From: Betaproteobacteria bacterium
GTDB lineage: Bacteria > Pseudomonadota > Gammaproteobacteria > Burkholderiales > SG8-39
Length of the DNA stretch: 64,000 nt
Assembly (NCBI GenBank): GCA_947482825.1
Contig: CANKMT010000005.1
Coordinates: 15,250 to 79,249, forward strand
Direction of reading: 5' to 3'
Below are positions 9,991 through 64,000 of the stretch, one piece after another. The stretch's first letter is position 1; each line of letters opens with the position of its first letter. Position numbers and translations under genes: made by a program. The notes beneath the pieces are model-generated. The model did no database searches. It was not told the DNA's origin and was given only the letters and a program-made list of their open reading frames with translations.

Positions 9991-11262
9991 TCACGATGTC
10001 CGGGTTGGGCAATTCCGAATCCCCCCGCAGATCTCCACCGGCGTAAACAACTCCTGCCTGCCCCCCGCCACTCCGCGCAGGTCGAACTCCCCGACGCTGC
10101 GCAGCGGACGTTTCACCAGCTTCGCAAACGGCCGCGACAGGAGCAGCGGCTCGCCGGTCTCCTTGCTGAGCGACTGGATGCGCGCGGTCATGTTCACGGC
10201 CGGCCCGACCACATTGAAGGCCAGGCGCGCAGGCGAGCCCACGTTGGCATGCGTGACCTGGCCAAGGTGCAGTCCGAGGCCGAACTCGATTGTCGGCAGT
10301 CCCGCGTGCTTGCGCCGGTGGTTGACCACTGCGATGGAATTAAAAGCGTCGATGGCCGCGTCGAGCGCCGACTCGCACACTTCGGCTTCCTTGTCCGGCG
10401 ACTTGATCTCGAAAACGATCAGGATCGCGTCGCCGATGAATTGCAGGATTTCGCCGCCGCGCGGCGCCGTGGCGGCCGCGCAGTACTCGAAATAGTCGTT
10501 CATGAGGCGCAGCAGTTCCTGTGTCGGGAGCGATTCGGACAGTTCCGTGAATCCGCGCAGGTCCGAGTACCAGAAGGCCGCTTCGATGCGTTCGCCGTCG
10601 CCGCGCTTGACCTGCCCCTGCAGGATGCGCTCGCCGATGCGCGGGCCGACAAAGGCATCGAGCAGGCCGAGCGTCACGCGGCGCGTGGCAAGGATTTCGA
10701 TTACGGGGGCGACCAGGTTGGCCAGCGCGGAGAACCGGCCGAGGTCCGCGTCGCTGAAGCCAGCGCTCGAGCGCGTGGCCAGCGTGAGGACGTTGGAGAT
10801 GCCCGAGCCGAACACCACCGGAACCGCGAAATAATCGACCATTCCTTCGGCGCGCAGGTCTGCCATGGTCGAGTGGTCTTCCGGGGCGACAGGCACGTCG
10901 AGCCGCTTGCGGAACGAGCGCTTTTCGTCGCGCACGAACTGGTTGGGGCTGCCGATGTAGGAATCGAGGTTCTGCACGCCATGCTCGGCTTTCCACGGTC
11001 GTGCGCCGACGTCGCGGTCCCAGAGAACACTCCACGCAAGCAATTGCGGGTGCAGGGTCGCGATGGACAGCCTGGACAGCCGCACACGGTCGATCCGCGC
11101 GCCGGCAGTGTCGAGCTTGCTCATGAGCGCGTTCATGAGATCGACCGGGTCCTCGAGGCTGCGCCCCTGGGTCAAGAGCCATGCGGCGACCGGCTCGTGC
11201 GACCATCCTTCGCTCGTGCCGAACAGGGATTCGCGCGGATGAAGGACCGGATCGTTGTCCAA
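9991..11262 (-). CDS. Class III adenylate/guanylate cyclase with uncharacterised N-terminal sensor-like domain
   Basis: C-terminal catalytic domain: AAFWYSDLRGFTELSE, GGEILQFIGDAILIVF, GLHLGQVTHANVGSPARLAFNVVGPAVNMTARIQS. Confidence 0.85.
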   Translation of the reverse strand: MDNDPVLHPRESLFGTSEGWSHEPVAAWLLTQGRSLEDPVDLMNALMSKLDTAGARIDRVRLSRLSIATLHPQLLAWSVLWDRDVGARPWKAEHGVQNLDSYIGSPNQFVRDEKRSFRKRLDVPVAPEDHSTMADLRAEGMVDYFAVPVVFGSGISNVLTLATRSSAGFSDADLGRFSALANLVAPVIEILATRRVTLGLLDAFVGPRIGERILQGQVKRGDGERIEAAFWYSDLRGFTELSESLPTQELLRLMNDYFEYCAAATAPRGGEILQFIGDAILIVFEIKSPDKEAEVCESALDAAIDAFNSIAVVNHRRKHAGLPTIEFGLGLHLGQVTHANVGSPARLAFNVVGPAVNMTARIQSLSKETGEPLLLSRPFAKLVKRPLRSVGEFDLRGVAGGRQELFTPVEICGGIRNCPTRTS

Positions 11263-11312
11263 GGTGCATTGTTCCGCAAAAGGCAGAGGGCGCGAATGTT
11301 AGCATCGGCGCC

Positions 11313-12104
11313 ATGACCGGCATCGGCAGATCCCTTTTCCTCGCGTTCGTGAGCCTCTTCAACCGCGGCATGCTCTGGCTGATGATCTGGCCGGTGCTGG
11401 TGTCGCTAGTGTTCTGGGGCGCGGTGGGGATTGCTTTCTGGGTAAAGACGGCAGTCTGGACCGCCGGGCTGCTGGGCCGGATCGCCGAGCCGGTTACGGC
11501 GTGGATACCGTTCGATGTCACCGGCATCGCGCTCTTTTCGGCGCATGTGATGCTGATCCTGCTGTTCGTCCCGCTCGTTTACCTCACCGCCCTGGTGATC
11601 CTCGGCGTTTTCGGCATGGATGCGATGGTCGAGCATGTGGCTTCCCGCCACTACCCTGCGCTGGCCCGACGCAATGGCGGTGGGACGGTAGGCAGCGTAT
11701 GGAACAGCGTGGTCGCGTTGTGCGGCATGGTGCTGCTTTTCATGGTGACGCTGCCGCTCTTGCTGATCCCGCCGGTGTGGGCGATGGTGCCGGTGATCGT
11801 GATGGGCTGGGTGAACCAGAAGATCCTGCGCTACGACGCGGTGGCCGCGCACGCGACGGCCGATGAGATGCGCCGCATCTTTTCCCTGCGGCGCGGCAGC
11901 TTGTACCTGCTGGGCCTCATCCTCGCGCTGGTGGCCTATGTGCCGGTGTTCGGGTTCTTCGCGCCGATGCTGTTTGCGCTCGCTTTCATCCACTTCGGCC
12001 TGGGCACGCTCGCCGAGTTGCGCGGCGAGACGGGCAGCGTGCCGCCTGCGAGCCGCCCGTCCCGAGAGGTGCGGGTGATCGAGGGGGAAGTCGTGCGGGA
12101 CTGA
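11313..12104 (+). CDS. EI24/CysZ-like integral membrane protein
   Basis: 263 aa from the ATG at 11313 (the upstream part of the track ORF is Arg-rich junk). Multiple TM segments resemble EI24 domain proteins by recollection. Confidence 0.55.
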   Translation: MTGIGRSLFLAFVSLFNRGMLWLMIWPVLVSLVFWGAVGIAFWVKTAVWTAGLLGRIAEPVTAWIPFDVTGIALFSAHVMLILLFVPLVYLTALVILGVFGMDAMVEHVASRHYPALARRNGGGTVGSVWNSVVALCGMVLLFMVTLPLLLIPPVWAMVPVIVMGWVNQKILRYDAVAAHATADEMRRIFSLRRGSLYLLGLILALVAYVPVFGFFAPMLFALAFIHFGLGTLAELRGETGSVPPASRPSREVRVIEGEVVRD

Positions 12105-12245: not shown

Positions 12246-13373
12246 ATGGATGCTCAGGCGCGCTACCCGCGATATCTCCTGTCGACGCTCAAGGACGACC
12301 TCTCCCGCAAGATGGTGTTCCTCGGAGGGCCGCGCCAGGTCGGCAAGACGAATCTGGGCAAGGTACTCATTCCCGACCCGGCCGCTTACCTCAACTGGGA
12401 CGTCGCCGCACATCGCGCGGCGATCCTGAAGCATCAGCTGCCGGCAGGCGACGCCTGGTTGTTTGACGAGATTCACAAATATCGTCAGTGGCGCGGCTTC
12501 CTCAAAGGCCTGTTTGACATGCATGGCAACGCAAGGCGGATTCTGGTTACAGGCAGCGCGCGCCTTGATTACTATCGCTACGGTGGCGATTCGCTGCAAG
12601 GGCGCTATCACTATCTGCGCTTGCATCCATTCTCCGTGGCCGAGCTGGGAATCGAGTCGCAGGCCGATCTTGAGCAGCTGCTGCGCCTCGGCGGTTTTCC
12701 GGAACCCTTCTTCTCAGGTTCGGAGCGGCAGGCTCGTCGCTGGGCGCGCGATTACCGTGACCGGCTGATGCGCGAGGAAGTCGCCAGCCTGGAGCGAATC
12801 GACGACCTGGGGCAACTCGAATTGCTGGTGATGCGTTTGCCGGGACTGGTCGGCAGCCCGCTTTCGATCAATGGCCTGCGTGAGGATTTATCGCTGTCGC
12901 ATCGCACGGTCAGCAGTTGGATCGACGTGCTCGAGCGTCTCTACGCGATCTACCGGATTGCGCCATTCGGTGCGCCGCGCATTCGTGCCGTGAGAAAGGC
13001 GCAGAAACACTATCACTTCGATTGGTCGGTAGTCGAAGAGGAAGGTGCGCGATTCGAGAATCTCGTGGCCAGCCATTTGCTCAAGTGGGTGCACTGGCAA
13101 AATGACGTTGAAGGGCGCGACGCCGAGTTGCGCTACTTCCGGGACACCGATGGGCGCGAAGTGGATTTCGTGGTGATGCTGGGGCGCCAGCCCGTGAGTT
13201 TTATCGAGTGCAAGATGAGCGATGGGCCGCTGGGCACCGGCATGCGCTATCTGAAGCAGCGTTTTCCGCAAGTCGATGCCTGGCAGGTAGCCGCGCGGAC
13301 CACGCGCGATTACGTTACGCGCGAAGGCGTGCGTGTCGCGCCGGTTCTGCGATTGCTCGAAGCGTTGAAATAG
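12246..13373 (+). CDS. AAA-family ATPase with DUF4143-type C-terminal domain
   Basis: Walker A in FLGGPRQVGKTNL; Walker B-like WLFDEIH. C-terminal EVDFVV...FIECK has the restriction-endonuclease-like pattern typical of this family. Confidence 0.8.
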   Translation: MDAQARYPRYLLSTLKDDLSRKMVFLGGPRQVGKTNLGKVLIPDPAAYLNWDVAAHRAAILKHQLPAGDAWLFDEIHKYRQWRGFLKGLFDMHGNARRILVTGSARLDYYRYGGDSLQGRYHYLRLHPFSVAELGIESQADLEQLLRLGGFPEPFFSGSERQARRWARDYRDRLMREEVASLERIDDLGQLELLVMRLPGLVGSPLSINGLREDLSLSHRTVSSWIDVLERLYAIYRIAPFGAPRIRAVRKAQKHYHFDWSVVEEEGARFENLVASHLLKWVHWQNDVEGRDAELRYFRDTDGREVDFVVMLGRQPVSFIECKMSDGPLGTGMRYLKQRFPQVDAWQVAARTTRDYVTREGVRVAPVLRLLEALK

Positions 13374-13405
13374 AACTACCGGGTTGCCGGATCAGGAAAT
13401 GAGGA

Positions 13406-15523
13406 TCATGCCCGGCTGATCCGGCAAGGCACCCCGCGCGTGTCAGCCGACCCGCTGGCCGGGTCGTAAGGACCGGCATAGCTCAACGCCGCATTGATGT
13501 TGACCTCGAGCGCGCCGAACTCCGGCCCCGGCGACTCGGGCAGCCACCAGCCCATGCCGGTGACGACCACGCCGGGGGCGGTCGCATCCGTCAACGAAGC
13601 TTTCAGCCGGCACGCACCCTGTCCGCGCGGCGTCTCGACCCTGACCCATTCGCCATCGGCAATGCCAAGCGAGCGTGCCGTATCCGGATTGATCTTCAGC
13701 AACGGGTCCGGCGAGACCTTGCGCGCCCACGCCTGCTCGCGAAAACGCGAGTGGTGATAGGTCTTCTCGCGCAGCCCGGTCTGCAGCGTGAAGGGATAGG
13801 CCGGGTTGTTTTCCTGCGATGCGCCGGTCGGCAGCCAGTCCGGCAGCGGATCGAGGCCTGCGTCGGCCATGCGCTGCGACCAGAGTTCGACCTTGCCGCT
13901 GGGCGTCTTGAAAACCTGTTTCGCGAAATCGCCTTGCGCGTAATCGAACTCGGCGTAGCCGTCGCTTGCGAGTTTCCCGAGGTCCAGGTTGGTGTCCTTC
14001 ACGAGGAACTCGTTGAATTCGCGCTGCGTGTTCCACGGCATGAGTTTGCGGTCGGCCGCGCCCCGCGCCGCCATGCGCTCCAGCAGGCCGGCGGCAATCT
14101 CGATGTCTGGTCGCGCCTCGCCCACGCGCGCGGCAAGCGCCGCGGTCCAGGTGACGCACGGGCCGTGCGCGTTGATCGAGACGTCCTCCTCTTCGAGCGT
14201 GGTGGTCTTGGGCAGCACGATGTCGGCCACGGCGGCGGTCGGATTCATGCTGTGTGCAGCCACCACGAGGAAATCGAGCGAGCGCAGCGCCGCCAGCGTC
14301 CGCTGCGAATTCGGATAGGTGACCGCGATGTTCACGCCGGAGACATACATCGCTCGCACTGGGTACGGCTGGCCGGTGAGCATTGCCTCGATGACCGTCG
14401 GGTTGTGGCAGGCGGTCTGCCAGCCTTTGGGTCCGGCCCAAAGCGGGAACCGGTCGGCGCCCAACGTCTTTGCAGCGACTTCGGGCGGCAACTGGAATGC
14501 CGGATCGTGGATCACGTCGAGATAATTCCTGAAGCCCCTGGGCCGCTTGGCGCGCCGGTTGCCGCCCGCGCGGTCGAGGTTGCCGCTGATCGCGACCAGG
14601 CAATGGAATGCCCGGAAAGTCTGCACGCCATTGGTGACCGCATCGATACCGTGTCCGGAAACGAAAGCCGACGGGCCCTCTGCGTAGGCGCGTGCAGCAG
14701 CGAGGATCAGGTCAGCGGGCACGCCGCTCACGGACGCTGCGCGCTCCGGGGTCCAGTCTTGCACGCGTTCGGCAAGCGCTTCATACCCGCGTGTCCACTG
14801 ATCGATAAAGGCCATGTCGTGCCGGTTCTCGGCAATCAGCACCTGCATCATGGCCAGGCCGATCGCGGCATCGGTGCCCGGATGCGGCCGCAGCCAGAGG
14901 TCGGCGATCTTCGCGGCCTCCGAGCGCAGCGGGTCGAGCACCACGATCTTCGCGCCGCGCGCCTTGGCCTCCTTGATCCGCGCCCATTGCACCGGGTTGG
15001 CCGCATGCGGGTTCGCGCCGACCATCAACACGGTCTTCGCGTGCTCGACGTCTTCGCCGCTCTGGATCGCCAGTCCTGTCACCATGTCGGACACGCCGCG
15101 GCATCCGCCGCACAGGTCCTGGTTGATGAGAAAGTTCGGCGAGCCCATCGCGCGCAGGGCGAGGGCCATGATCGCTCCGCGCGAGAAGAATGCGCCGCCC
15201 GTTGCGCCGGCTAGCGAGAGAGGGCCGTGTTTGGAGCGCGCCGCCGAGAAGCCTTCGGCCATTGCGTCCAGCGCGGCGTCCCAGGAAATCTCTTCCCACC
15301 GGTTCGAGCCGCGTTCGCCGATGCGCCGCAGGGGATGCAGGAGGCGCGTCGCCCCATAAGTGATCTCAGCGAGGCCGCGGATTCCCTTCACGCAGAACGC
15401 GCCGCGCGAGGCCGGGTGCGCGGGATTCGGGTCGATGCGCGTGACGCGCCCGCCTTCGACATGGGCAATCGCCCCGCAGCAGGTGGAGCATTCCCAGCAG
15501 GTGGTCGGCACGGTCCGATTCAT
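13406..15523 (-). CDS. Molybdopterin (bis-MGD) oxidoreductase, DMSO reductase/formate dehydrogenase superfamily
   Basis: The N-terminal Fe-S motif CWECSTCCG...C(VKG) is followed by molybdopterin oxidoreductase and C-terminal dinucleotide-binding regions. 705 aa. Confidence 0.85.
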   Translation of the reverse strand: MNRTVPTTCWECSTCCGAIAHVEGGRVTRIDPNPAHPASRGAFCVKGIRGLAEITYGATRLLHPLRRIGERGSNRWEEISWDAALDAMAEGFSAARSKHGPLSLAGATGGAFFSRGAIMALALRAMGSPNFLINQDLCGGCRGVSDMVTGLAIQSGEDVEHAKTVLMVGANPHAANPVQWARIKEAKARGAKIVVLDPLRSEAAKIADLWLRPHPGTDAAIGLAMMQVLIAENRHDMAFIDQWTRGYEALAERVQDWTPERAASVSGVPADLILAAARAYAEGPSAFVSGHGIDAVTNGVQTFRAFHCLVAISGNLDRAGGNRRAKRPRGFRNYLDVIHDPAFQLPPEVAAKTLGADRFPLWAGPKGWQTACHNPTVIEAMLTGQPYPVRAMYVSGVNIAVTYPNSQRTLAALRSLDFLVVAAHSMNPTAAVADIVLPKTTTLEEEDVSINAHGPCVTWTAALAARVGEARPDIEIAAGLLERMAARGAADRKLMPWNTQREFNEFLVKDTNLDLGKLASDGYAEFDYAQGDFAKQVFKTPSGKVELWSQRMADAGLDPLPDWLPTGASQENNPAYPFTLQTGLREKTYHHSRFREQAWARKVSPDPLLKINPDTARSLGIADGEWVRVETPRGQGACRLKASLTDATAPGVVVTGMGWWLPESPGPEFGALEVNINAALSYAGPYDPASGSADTRGVPCRISRA

Positions 15524-61664: not shown

Positions 61665-62951
<1,287 letters not shown>

Positions 62952-63018: not shown

Positions 63019-63106
63019 GGAGAGGTGGCAGAGTGGTCGAATGCGCCAGACTCGAAATCTGGTTTACGGAAACGTAACGTGGGTTCGAATCCCACCCTCT
63101 CCGCCA
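63019..63106 (+). tRNA. tRNA-Ser (anticodon CGA), CCA encoded
   Basis: GGAGAGG acceptor pairs with CCTCTCC. Anticodon stem-loop CCAGA-CTCGAAA-TCTGG. Long variable arm, T-arm GGGTTCGAATCCC, terminal GCCA. Confidence 0.95.
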
Positions 63107-63223
63107 AGGGTGGTGGCCGGCGACATCGTTACGGGCACAGGATTCACCATCTTCGCGCTTGCAAATGCGGGTCGAGCATATGGACTGTGGACCGTGGCCT
63201 GGGTTTGGAATTAGGAAAACACA

Positions 63224-63859
63224 ATGGCGATTCAACTGATTGGGACAGGTGCGGCGGTTCAAGAGGTGGATACCGCCTTCAAGGCTGCGCGGGTCAGCAT
63301 CCGCCCGGTCGACGTCATCAACTGGCTGTCTTATGGGGCGGCGTCTGGTGCACTGACCGGCGTGGCCGCCAACGGGCCGGTGTTTTCATTGCGCAATACG
63401 GGTGCGAACCTGCTGATGGTGCGCCGGGTGCAGGTGGGGTTTGTGACGACCACCGCGTTCACGGCAGCGCAGGGCCTGGTCTACCAATTGCTCAAGGCCA
63501 ATGGATTTACGACGTCTGATACCGGCGGCACGGCGCTGTACGCGGCCGGGCAGAACAAGCATCGGCTCAGCTTCACGAACATAACGGCGGCACCGGACAT
63601 CCGTATTGCCTCCACCGCAGCATTGGGGGCTGGCACGCGGTCGCTGGAGACCGTATCCATGGGCATCGCGGGCGGCACGAGTAACGGGCTGGGAACTTCC
63701 ATGCCGATGACGGCGCTGCTTTCACACGACGCGGGAGACCATCCGATCATCCTGGCGCAGAACGAAGGCCTGGTGATTGCCAACGGAATTGCCATGGGCG
63801 CAGCGGGTGTCATCCAATGGCACGTGAACATTGAACTTGCCGAAGTGACCAGCTACTGA
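63224..63859 (+). CDS. Hypothetical 211-aa Gly/Ala/Thr-rich, beta-rich protein (structural-protein-like)
   Basis: AGGAAA lies 6 nt upstream of the ATG. Codon usage differs visibly from the core genes, with many A/T-ending codons. No TM segment, no signal peptide, no family recognised. Confidence 0.55.
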   Translation: MAIQLIGTGAAVQEVDTAFKAARVSIRPVDVINWLSYGAASGALTGVAANGPVFSLRNTGANLLMVRRVQVGFVTTTAFTAAQGLVYQLLKANGFTTSDTGGTALYAAGQNKHRLSFTNITAAPDIRIASTAALGAGTRSLETVSMGIAGGTSNGLGTSMPMTALLSHDAGDHPIILAQNEGLVIANGIAMGAAGVIQWHVNIELAEVTSY

Positions 63860-63911
63860 CGTGGATGATCCGTCGGGGACGCCAACGCCCGGCACTGTGA
63901 AGAGGTAGACC

Positions 63912-64000
63912 ATGTCCTTGCTGCTGTCGGCGGGCGCTGGCAGCCCTGTACCCGTTGCGGGTGTAGCGCTCACTGCCCAAGGTGGCCAGGGGTCCGCGGC
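63912..64000 (+). CDS. Start of a further ORF (MSLLLSAGAGSPVPVAGVALTAQGGQGSA...), truncated by window end
   Basis: The ATG at 63912 is preceded by GAAGAGG. Only 29 codons are visible. Confidence 0.3.
   Translation, partial: MSLLLSAGAGSPVPVAGVALTAQGGQGSA

Follow-up and report, generated by a model that had tools for sequence, protein, structure and literature searches.

Probable edge of a 5'-truncated siphovirus prophage at tRNA-Ser(CGA), carrying an orphaned accessory cassette that may encode a virion fibre

The stretch analysed here (the window) comprises 64,000 nucleotides (nt) of contig CANKMT010000005.1 from a Betaproteobacteria bacterium, and our subject is its last 0.9 kb, where a tRNA-Ser(CGA) gene is followed by an open reading frame (ORF) of 211 amino acids (aa), hereafter ORF211. 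The tRNA is the sole ARAGORN tRNA call in the window, and the genes upstream of it are ftsK, lolA, rarA and serS. An initial annotation, made from the letters alone, had described tRNA-Ser(CGA), a 211-aa ORF 117 nt later and a second Gly/Ala-rich ORF cut by the window end; ARAGORN, Rfam and the ORF translations agree with all three. The translation of the cut ORF begins MSLLLSAGAGSPVPVAG, and by the offset to the continuation given below its full length is 267 aa (ORF267), ending at about 64715. Gly, Ala and Thr together make up 38% of the ORF211 product versus 22-27% of the ftsK, lolA, rarA and serS products. The 211-aa protein had been called beta-rich and free of transmembrane (TM) segments, which agrees with an all-beta AlphaFold2 (AF2) model and with a KD19 maximum of 1.41; no TM-like segment and no signal peptide were found in ORF211. 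The claimed change in codon usage was confirmed, though it is small. The GC content at third codon positions (GC3) is indeed lower in ORF211 (0.745) than in the four genes before tRNA-Ser (0.83-0.88), but this is a deviation of only z = -1.4 from the ~49 predicted genes of the window (mean 0.813, standard deviation 0.049), among which several host genes are as low. Bulk GC shows no shift. Codon usage was dropped as proof of a foreign origin of ORF211, being too weak. We found no promoter-like or terminator-like site between tRNA-Ser and ORF211, so that any expression of ORF211 would be read-through.

An exact-protein look-up placed ORF211 on four independently assembled metagenome contigs (L001-L004), and the continuation past the window end was read from the longest of them, L001, which shows 3 mismatches to the window over 10,777 shared nt (coordinate conversion: window = L001 + 53223). 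Beyond position 64000 the sequence holds phage genes, a capsid gene included, and not just ordinary core genes (Table 1). The S49 protease, HK97-type capsid and head-tail adaptor on L001 bear out the proposal that the window ends at the edge of an integrated element. The cargo inserted among these genes consists, in the window lineage, of half a response-regulator receiver domain (a pseudogene), a TctC-type binding protein and a 250-aa membrane protein. L001 stops inside the element and contains a single copy of the tRNA-Ser 3' end. As the initial annotation had noted, there is no integrase beside the tRNA, and none was found in the 7.2 kb added downstream by L001; terminase and portal genes are likewise absent from the window end and L001. 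We are highly confident that the window closes, over its last 0.9 kb, with the left edge of a prophage remnant at tRNA-Ser(CGA), from a phage lineage with an HK97-type capsid, an S49 protease and a lambda-like tail. If nothing here were foreign, ORF211 and its neighbour would be ordinary chromosomal genes after a tRNA, as GC content and GC3 within the host range would allow. This explanation is refuted by the phage protease, capsid and adaptor genes downstream, by the 184 ORF211 relatives in IMG/VR viral contigs, by the position of the closest relatives between portal and protease genes of prophages and by the 61 backbone loci described below, and we give it practically no credence. Nor does the 211-aa protein behave as a syntenic core gene, given its relatives in IMG/VR contigs and in prophages of many phyla.

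Table 1 Features at the prophage edge and on its continuation, contig L001 (window positions; L001 positions where given).
Feature	Window position	Strand	L001 position	Evidence or remark
tRNA-Ser(CGA), intact, CCA encoded	63019-63106	+		ARAGORN; Rfam RF00005, 64.9 bits
Junction microhomology TCCGCCA, the 3'-most 7 nt of the tRNA	63100-63106	+		Alignment and blastn against L005
Remnant of phage gene C1, last 35 codons and stop, RVVAGDIVTGTGFTIFALANAGRAYGLWTVAWVWN*, 5' part lost	63107-63214	+		
ORF211 (family C0), intact, 211 aa	63224-63859	+		Starts 117 nt past tRNA-Ser
Repeat-protein ORF (ORF267), ATG at 63912, N-terminus MSLLLSAGAGSPVPVAGVALTAQGGQGSA..., cut at window end	63912-64000	+		
267-aa Gly/Ala/Gln-rich protein, directly after ORF211			10689-11492	
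S49/ClpP-type protease, 312 aa, third in the order that starts with ORF211				PF01343, 2.4e-37; phrog_53, head maturation protease
Host-like cargo, 2.8 kb, between S49 protease and capsid gene	65655-68453 (past window end)		12432-15230	
HK97-type major capsid protein, 433 aa, after cargo				PF05065, 3.4e-46; phrog_10
149-aa protein between capsid and head-tail adaptor genes			On L001	
Head-tail adaptor, last gene on L001				PF05135, 3.7e-5; phrog_442

The closest relatives of ORF211 are found in metagenome-assembled genomes (MAGs) of Rhodoferax, at 84-87% identity, and intact relatives of the element show what stands before ORF211 elsewhere. In Rhodoferax MAGs, as on contig L005, the order is small terminase (TerS)-large terminase (TerL)-portal-C10 (140 aa)-C1 (93 aa)-ORF211-repeat protein (311 aa)-S49 protease-short cargo-capsid-149-aa protein-adaptor, and tail genes follow the adaptor up to the tape-measure gene. 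The P0006 contig has the same gene order through a lambda-type tape-measure gene, its tail genes being HK97 gp10-like, tail-completion, tail-tube, chaperone and lambda-type tape-measure genes. C1 is intact within a contiguous late operon in L005, L006 and the P0006 contig. The large terminase of the P0006 contig (4537-7504 in locus coordinates) is split into two gene calls, 209 and 773 aa, against a single 570-aa gene in L005; the split could stem from a frameshift or from an inserted intein or homing endonuclease.

Comparison with these relatives locates the junction. By blastn, homology between L001 and L005 begins at L001 9877, equal to window position 63100, where the alignment sets ...CTCTCCGCCAAGGGTGGTG in the window against ...GTCGATCCGCCACGGGTGGTG in C1 of L005. 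The tRNA-Ser end and the C1 gene of relatives share TCCGCCA only, and the preceding bases mismatch. What appears as a 117-nt spacer after tRNA-Ser is the terminal 35 codons of C1, with 94% identity to the C-terminal end of C1 (93 aa) in L005 and L006, and all that lies left of C1 codon ~58 is missing from the window lineage. The junction between tRNA and C1 remnant is identical in the four independent assemblies (L001-L004) and is therefore no assembly artefact. tRNA-Ser(CGA) is the left border of the phage-derived DNA. Between L001 and L005, DNA identity is ~95% in the C1 remnant (synonymous divergence, dS, 0.075) and 78% in the adjoining ORF211 (dS ~1.0), which suggests from sequence comparison that the C1/ORF211 junction may be a recombination boundary, the segment being short and the estimate noisy.

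Because the border falls inside a structural gene at a 7-nt microhomology, it reads as a deletion scar and not as an attachment (att) site, and we consider it likely that the truncation arose by deletion. A phage would first have integrated at tRNA-Ser; a later deletion would then have taken the integrase, the early genes, terminase, portal, C10 and most of C1. The missing integrase follows from the 5' truncation of the prophage, and among the options that the initial annotation had offered for its absence, a degenerate element is the one borne out, the element being truncated at the tRNA with C1 reduced to its last 35 codons. With terminase, portal and integrase deleted, the remnant would be unable to package DNA or to excise. 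This picture is similar to that of tRNA-integrated temperate phages and islands (P4, P22 and HK022 type, with tyrosine integrases) and their cryptic, deleted descendants (for example the defective lambdoid prophages of E. coli K-12) in that phage DNA starts exactly at an intact tRNA 3' end, a late-gene block of a common temperate siphovirus lineage remains, autonomy genes are lost and cargo is inserted. Unlike them, the element here shows no integrase or att repeat, and its border is a 7-nt microhomology in a structural gene rather than an att core beside int.

The same junction could also belong to a complete prophage whose phage attachment site (attP) lies inside C1, with int...TerS-TerL-portal-C10 and the N-terminus of C1 at the far end, to be rejoined on excision. 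Such an arrangement would account for a junction exactly at the tRNA 3' end with the tRNA kept intact, for 7 shared nt that could serve as an overlap region and for remaining phage ORFs that are all intact, and L001 ends short of the right end of the element. However, the tRNA and the C1 of relatives share only those 7 nt, with mismatches upstream, while a phage whose integrase targets a tRNA gene normally brings along more of the tRNA 3' end. Moreover, C1 is intact in the contiguous late operon of all three relatives (L005, L006 and the P0006 contig), and integration that splits a late structural operon would be unusual. We regard a complete prophage as improbable and retain truncation by deletion.

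Scanning metagenomes with a 44-nt piece of the tRNA for an empty site or an intact prophage at tRNA-Ser gave only two short contigs from unrelated loci, and no tRNA-Ser fragment was present within +-10 kb of capsid-lineage loci. The exact 28-nt tRNA-Ser 3' end occurs in at least 120 IMG/VR contigs (L119-L238), which fits tRNA-Ser as a common prophage border; neither the capsid lineage nor ORF211 was found on these listed contigs. An ARAGORN call of tRNA-Ser(CGA) at L005 625-704 was rejected as a false positive that lies inside a 519-aa ParB-N/DNA-methylase ORF and fails to align with the window tRNA. Our literature search returned nothing on Rhodoferax prophages at tRNA-Ser, nor for the PHROG identifiers.

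The ratio of nonsynonymous to synonymous substitution rates (dN/dS) of ORF211 against L005 is 0.074, with the S49 protease and the capsid in a similar range (0.05-0.07), and these comparisons indicate that strong purifying selection acted on ORF211 through its history. Conserved genes could also mean that the remnant is a domesticated or satellite-type element (similar to a gene transfer agent, or a capsid-forming island) that retains protease, capsid and connector genes for itself and depends on other elements for packaging. The intact protease, capsid, 149-aa protein and adaptor genes (dN/dS 0.05-0.23 against L005) and the host-like cargo inside the element are compatible with such a role. 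Yet a low dN/dS at dS values of 0.3-1.0 is mostly a legacy of the period in which both lineages were still phages. Portal and terminase are missing, the neighbouring genes are typical of a widespread lineage of temperate phages (549 relatives), and the sequence read past the window spans 7.2 kb. We consider a domesticated element very unlikely, and a decayed prophage remains our reading of the locus.

Those 549 relatives are IMG/VR proteins 77-92% identical to the capsid protein of the element, and they allowed us to separate backbone from accessory genes. In 61 of 61 IMG/VR loci with portal, S49 protease and capsid, C10, C1, ORF211 and ORF267 are all missing; the protease there comes directly after the portal, at a gap of 62-312 nt. 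The four genes are therefore an insertion of ~2.3 kb, and we show that C10, C1, ORF211 and the repeat protein form an accessory mobile cassette and are not backbone head genes. Within this phage type, the cassette has so far been seen only in the Rhodoferax sub-lineage. A second variable site, between protease and capsid, is a clear and often used cargo slot with a bimodal length across the same 61 loci, being either empty (~70-185 nt) or filled (0.7-2.6 kb), and the window lineage, L005 (12564-13956) and the P0006 contig each hold a different cargo in it.

The head module itself resembles the HK97-like module (portal PF04860) in its PF05065 capsid, its PF05135 connector and the gene order protease-capsid-connector, and relatives also carry Phage_HCP, HK97-gp10_like, lambda-type tail-tube, tail-chaperone and tape-measure genes. 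It differs in three respects: 1) the protease is of S49/ClpP type and not HK97 gp4 (S78), 2) a four-gene cassette is placed between portal and protease, in this sub-lineage only, and 3) portal and terminase are deleted in the window lineage. In the window genome the cassette is an orphaned fragment, with C1 destroyed and terminase and portal gone, and ORF211 is probably silent or dispensable there.

ORF211 belongs to a large family without names. A single-sequence search recovered 512 proteins and a profile of diverse members at least 1,710, with no names and no Pfam domains among them, and a scan of 1.84 billion representatives gave 1,788 clusters at 50% identity, 498 of them below 1e-30. Members are nearly all stand-alone proteins of 205-240 aa. 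Relatives are present in MAGs of Proteobacteria, Acidobacteriota, Armatimonadetes, Chloroflexi, Thermotogae, Patescibacteria and other groups. ORF211 matched zero families at E <= 1 in Pfam and PHROGs and zero in NCBIfam, and no profile of a known tail-fibre, tail-fibre-assembly or decoration family in these three collections matched it. PADLOC returned no family at E <= 0.1 for ORF211, C10, C1, ORF267, C2 or one distant family member. In some low-GC viral contigs the ORF211-family gene is tandemly duplicated (L055 4724-6132, L058 9974-11295 and L063 9315-10651).

We clustered the ORFs around 106 ORF211-family members, and upstream counts refer to the 97 that have 400 nt or more of sequence on that side. 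Of these 97 loci, 66 have a C1-type domain upstream of the family gene; in 61 the two are directly adjacent, mostly at gaps of 1-13 nt, and in another 20 loci C4, a distinct fibre-like protein of 200-570 aa, takes the place of C1. C1 is usually a stand-alone protein of 104-140 aa (>1,000 proteins found); elsewhere it is the C-terminal part of a longer protein, in some cases one with collagen repeats or a fibre N-terminus. A C1 profile search for informative fused domains yielded none, its top matches being stand-alone proteins of 104-140 aa with no Pfam match. Residues H48, D51, E52 and H53 of C1 (a DH..DEH motif) are at least 90% conserved in one alignment (A5) and invariant in another (A6), and a loop varies in length from 0 to ~60 residues; motif and loop suggest a putative metal site and a variable surface. 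The gene before C1 often encodes 130-155 aa and is either C10 (phrog_3758) or C2 (phrog_644), C10 matching phrog_3758, annotated as virion structural protein, at 4e-25.

On the other side of ORF211-family genes, the next gene starts MSLLL, MALLL or MLGLAPFSG in at least 35 of 85 non-redundant loci and continues in short lineage-specific repeats. ORF267 of the window is of the MSLLL type (N-terminus MSLLLS) and has a strict 21-residue period, with an 'xQG' motif at residues 22, 43, 64, 85, 106 and 127. It is shorter by two repeats than the 311-aa orthologues of L005 and L006. The repeat protein is by far the more variable, at 58-62% identity versus 87-97% for its neighbours. No tandem repeat was found in ORF267 at the DNA level, the periodicity being present at the protein level only.

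Beyond the present lineage, genomes of podo-, myo- and siphoviruses also carry the cassette, placed either immediately behind the portal gene or in the region of the tail fibres. It follows the portal gene in phages of at least five different portal families; elsewhere it comes after a head-closure gene, a gpJ-like tail protein or a collagen-like tail fibre, and in a Mu-like myovirus it stands amid fibre-like genes, between baseplate and lysis genes. Cassette genes are always co-oriented with late genes.

The AF2 model of ORF211 (93 sequences) is all-beta with 12 strands, at a predicted local distance difference test (pLDDT) score of 83.4 and a predicted template-modelling (pTM) score of 0.78, and its N-terminal ~30 residues are conserved and poorly ordered. 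The protein is accordingly modelled as a jelly-roll-like beta sandwich with a flexible, conserved N-terminal arm. In Foldseek against the PDB, the top 50 matches are nearly all single-jelly-roll capsid proteins, at weak E values (1.5e-3 to 2e-2) and low TM scores. The jelly-roll fold that the initial annotation had guessed at is therefore compatible with the model, but only weakly, no PDB match reaching E <= 1e-3. Against BFVD, matches are better (to 4e-9, TM score 0.5-0.6) and fall on unnamed proteins of cultured and uncultured phages, after which come CRESS-DNA capsid proteins. A profile search of the ORF211 family against PDB sequences returned nothing. The best Foldseek matches, among single-jelly-roll capsids (infectious bursal disease virus VP2, tombus-, noda- and bromoviruses, CRESS-DNA viruses), are like ORF211 in size, in a sandwich of at least eight strands and in the flexible N-terminal arm. 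Unlike them, ORF211 is encoded in a tailed-phage late operon with its own HK97-fold capsid, and the matches are weak, with no sequence similarity. C1 is modelled as a small six-strand sandwich (pLDDT 79.5).

Two further leads on ORF211 came to nothing. A structural analogue in the Pantoea phage LIMEzero was uninformative; it is probably the hypothetical protein ORF57, encoded at one end of that genome. A glycanase or lyase role, raised by two invariant Glu residues and the jelly-roll-like fold, was set aside, as no glycoside hydrolase or polysaccharide lyase structure was among the Foldseek matches.

Accessory, dispensable virion appendages are known from several phages and include the side tail fibres Stf/Tfa of lambda, Hoc and fibritin of T4, the head fibres gp8.5 of phi29 and jelly-roll cement or decoration proteins, for instance that of Bordetella phage BPP-1. 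Like these, the cassette is non-essential, variably present and horizontally exchanged within late operons, and its genes encode both a repeat or fibre component and small subunits of beta-sandwich type, ORF211 being jelly-roll-like by prediction. It shows no sequence or significant structural similarity to any of these appendages (Pfam, PHROGs, PDB profile; Foldseek PDB E >= 1.5e-3). From this context, we lean slightly towards the cassette encoding an accessory virion appendage, either a fibre or an adhesin. In such an appendage, the repeat protein would be the variable shaft and C1 a small beta-sandwich connector, as which it would be fused to fibre or collagen segments in some phages, and ORF211 might be a conserved jelly-roll subunit that links or caps the repeat protein and C1.

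It is also conceivable that the cassette is a moron outside the virion, serving superinfection exclusion, surface modification, anti-defence or host benefit, and perhaps kept by the host after the prophage decayed. Its accessory nature (missing from 61 of 61 backbone relatives), its movement among unrelated phages, its intact state in a defective prophage and the lack of homology to any known structural family would all suit such a gene set. Against this, the cassette is co-oriented and tightly coupled within late structural operons, and PADLOC is negative. The PHROG hit by C10 bears the annotation virion structural protein, some phages have C1 joined to collagen or fibre segments, and there is neither a signal peptide nor a TM segment. 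In the window, moreover, C1, the obligate neighbour, is destroyed and no promoter-like site precedes ORF211. A moron is unlikely in our judgement, and we continue to prefer an appendage.

Overall, the locus is probably the edge of a 5'-truncated siphovirus prophage that carries an orphaned accessory cassette, one somewhat more likely than not to encode a virion fibre or adhesin. Several observations weigh against this interpretation. No attR, integrase or empty site was found, so that integration at the tRNA and subsequent deletion are both read from one junction. All remaining phage genes are intact, which means that the truncation is recent or that the remnant has been retained for some reason. 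Conservation as strong as that of ORF211 is unusual in a receptor-binding tip, and fibre genes do not usually come after the portal. The ORF211, C1 and repeat-protein families have no experimental or annotated function, and tblastn with three diverse ORF211-family members and C10 against 50,697 GenBank phages gave no match. Finally, Foldseek against the PDB found no solved structure similar to the ORF211 family at E <= 1e-3, and nothing below E 0.9 for the C1 model.

More broadly, and only tentatively, C10 or C2, C1, the ORF211 family and an MSLLL-type repeat protein might constitute an undescribed accessory virion appendage that is horizontally exchanged, possibly made of two folds without solved relatives and a hypervariable repeat shaft, and carried by podo-, myo- and siphoviruses of many phyla, preferentially beside the portal. 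If so, the appendage would be an add-on of generic type, an adhesin or a head/neck fibre system, observed to date only in uncultured phages. A decayed prophage next to a tRNA is in itself a routine genome feature. The wider value of the locus is that ORF211 flags a large family (~1,800 clusters) named in no curated resource, together with a partner, C1, of >1,000 proteins. An add-on fibre or adhesin, if confirmed, would represent a new and common way for environmental phages to alter cell attachment. Structural biology would then gain new folds, and the annotation of viral contigs a useful marker.

Upstream of the border, 2 of the only 3 differences between the window and L001 fall in serS, at positions 62620 and 62625, 5 nt apart. 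They alter two residues, and L001 reads ELPYLTFVLC there.

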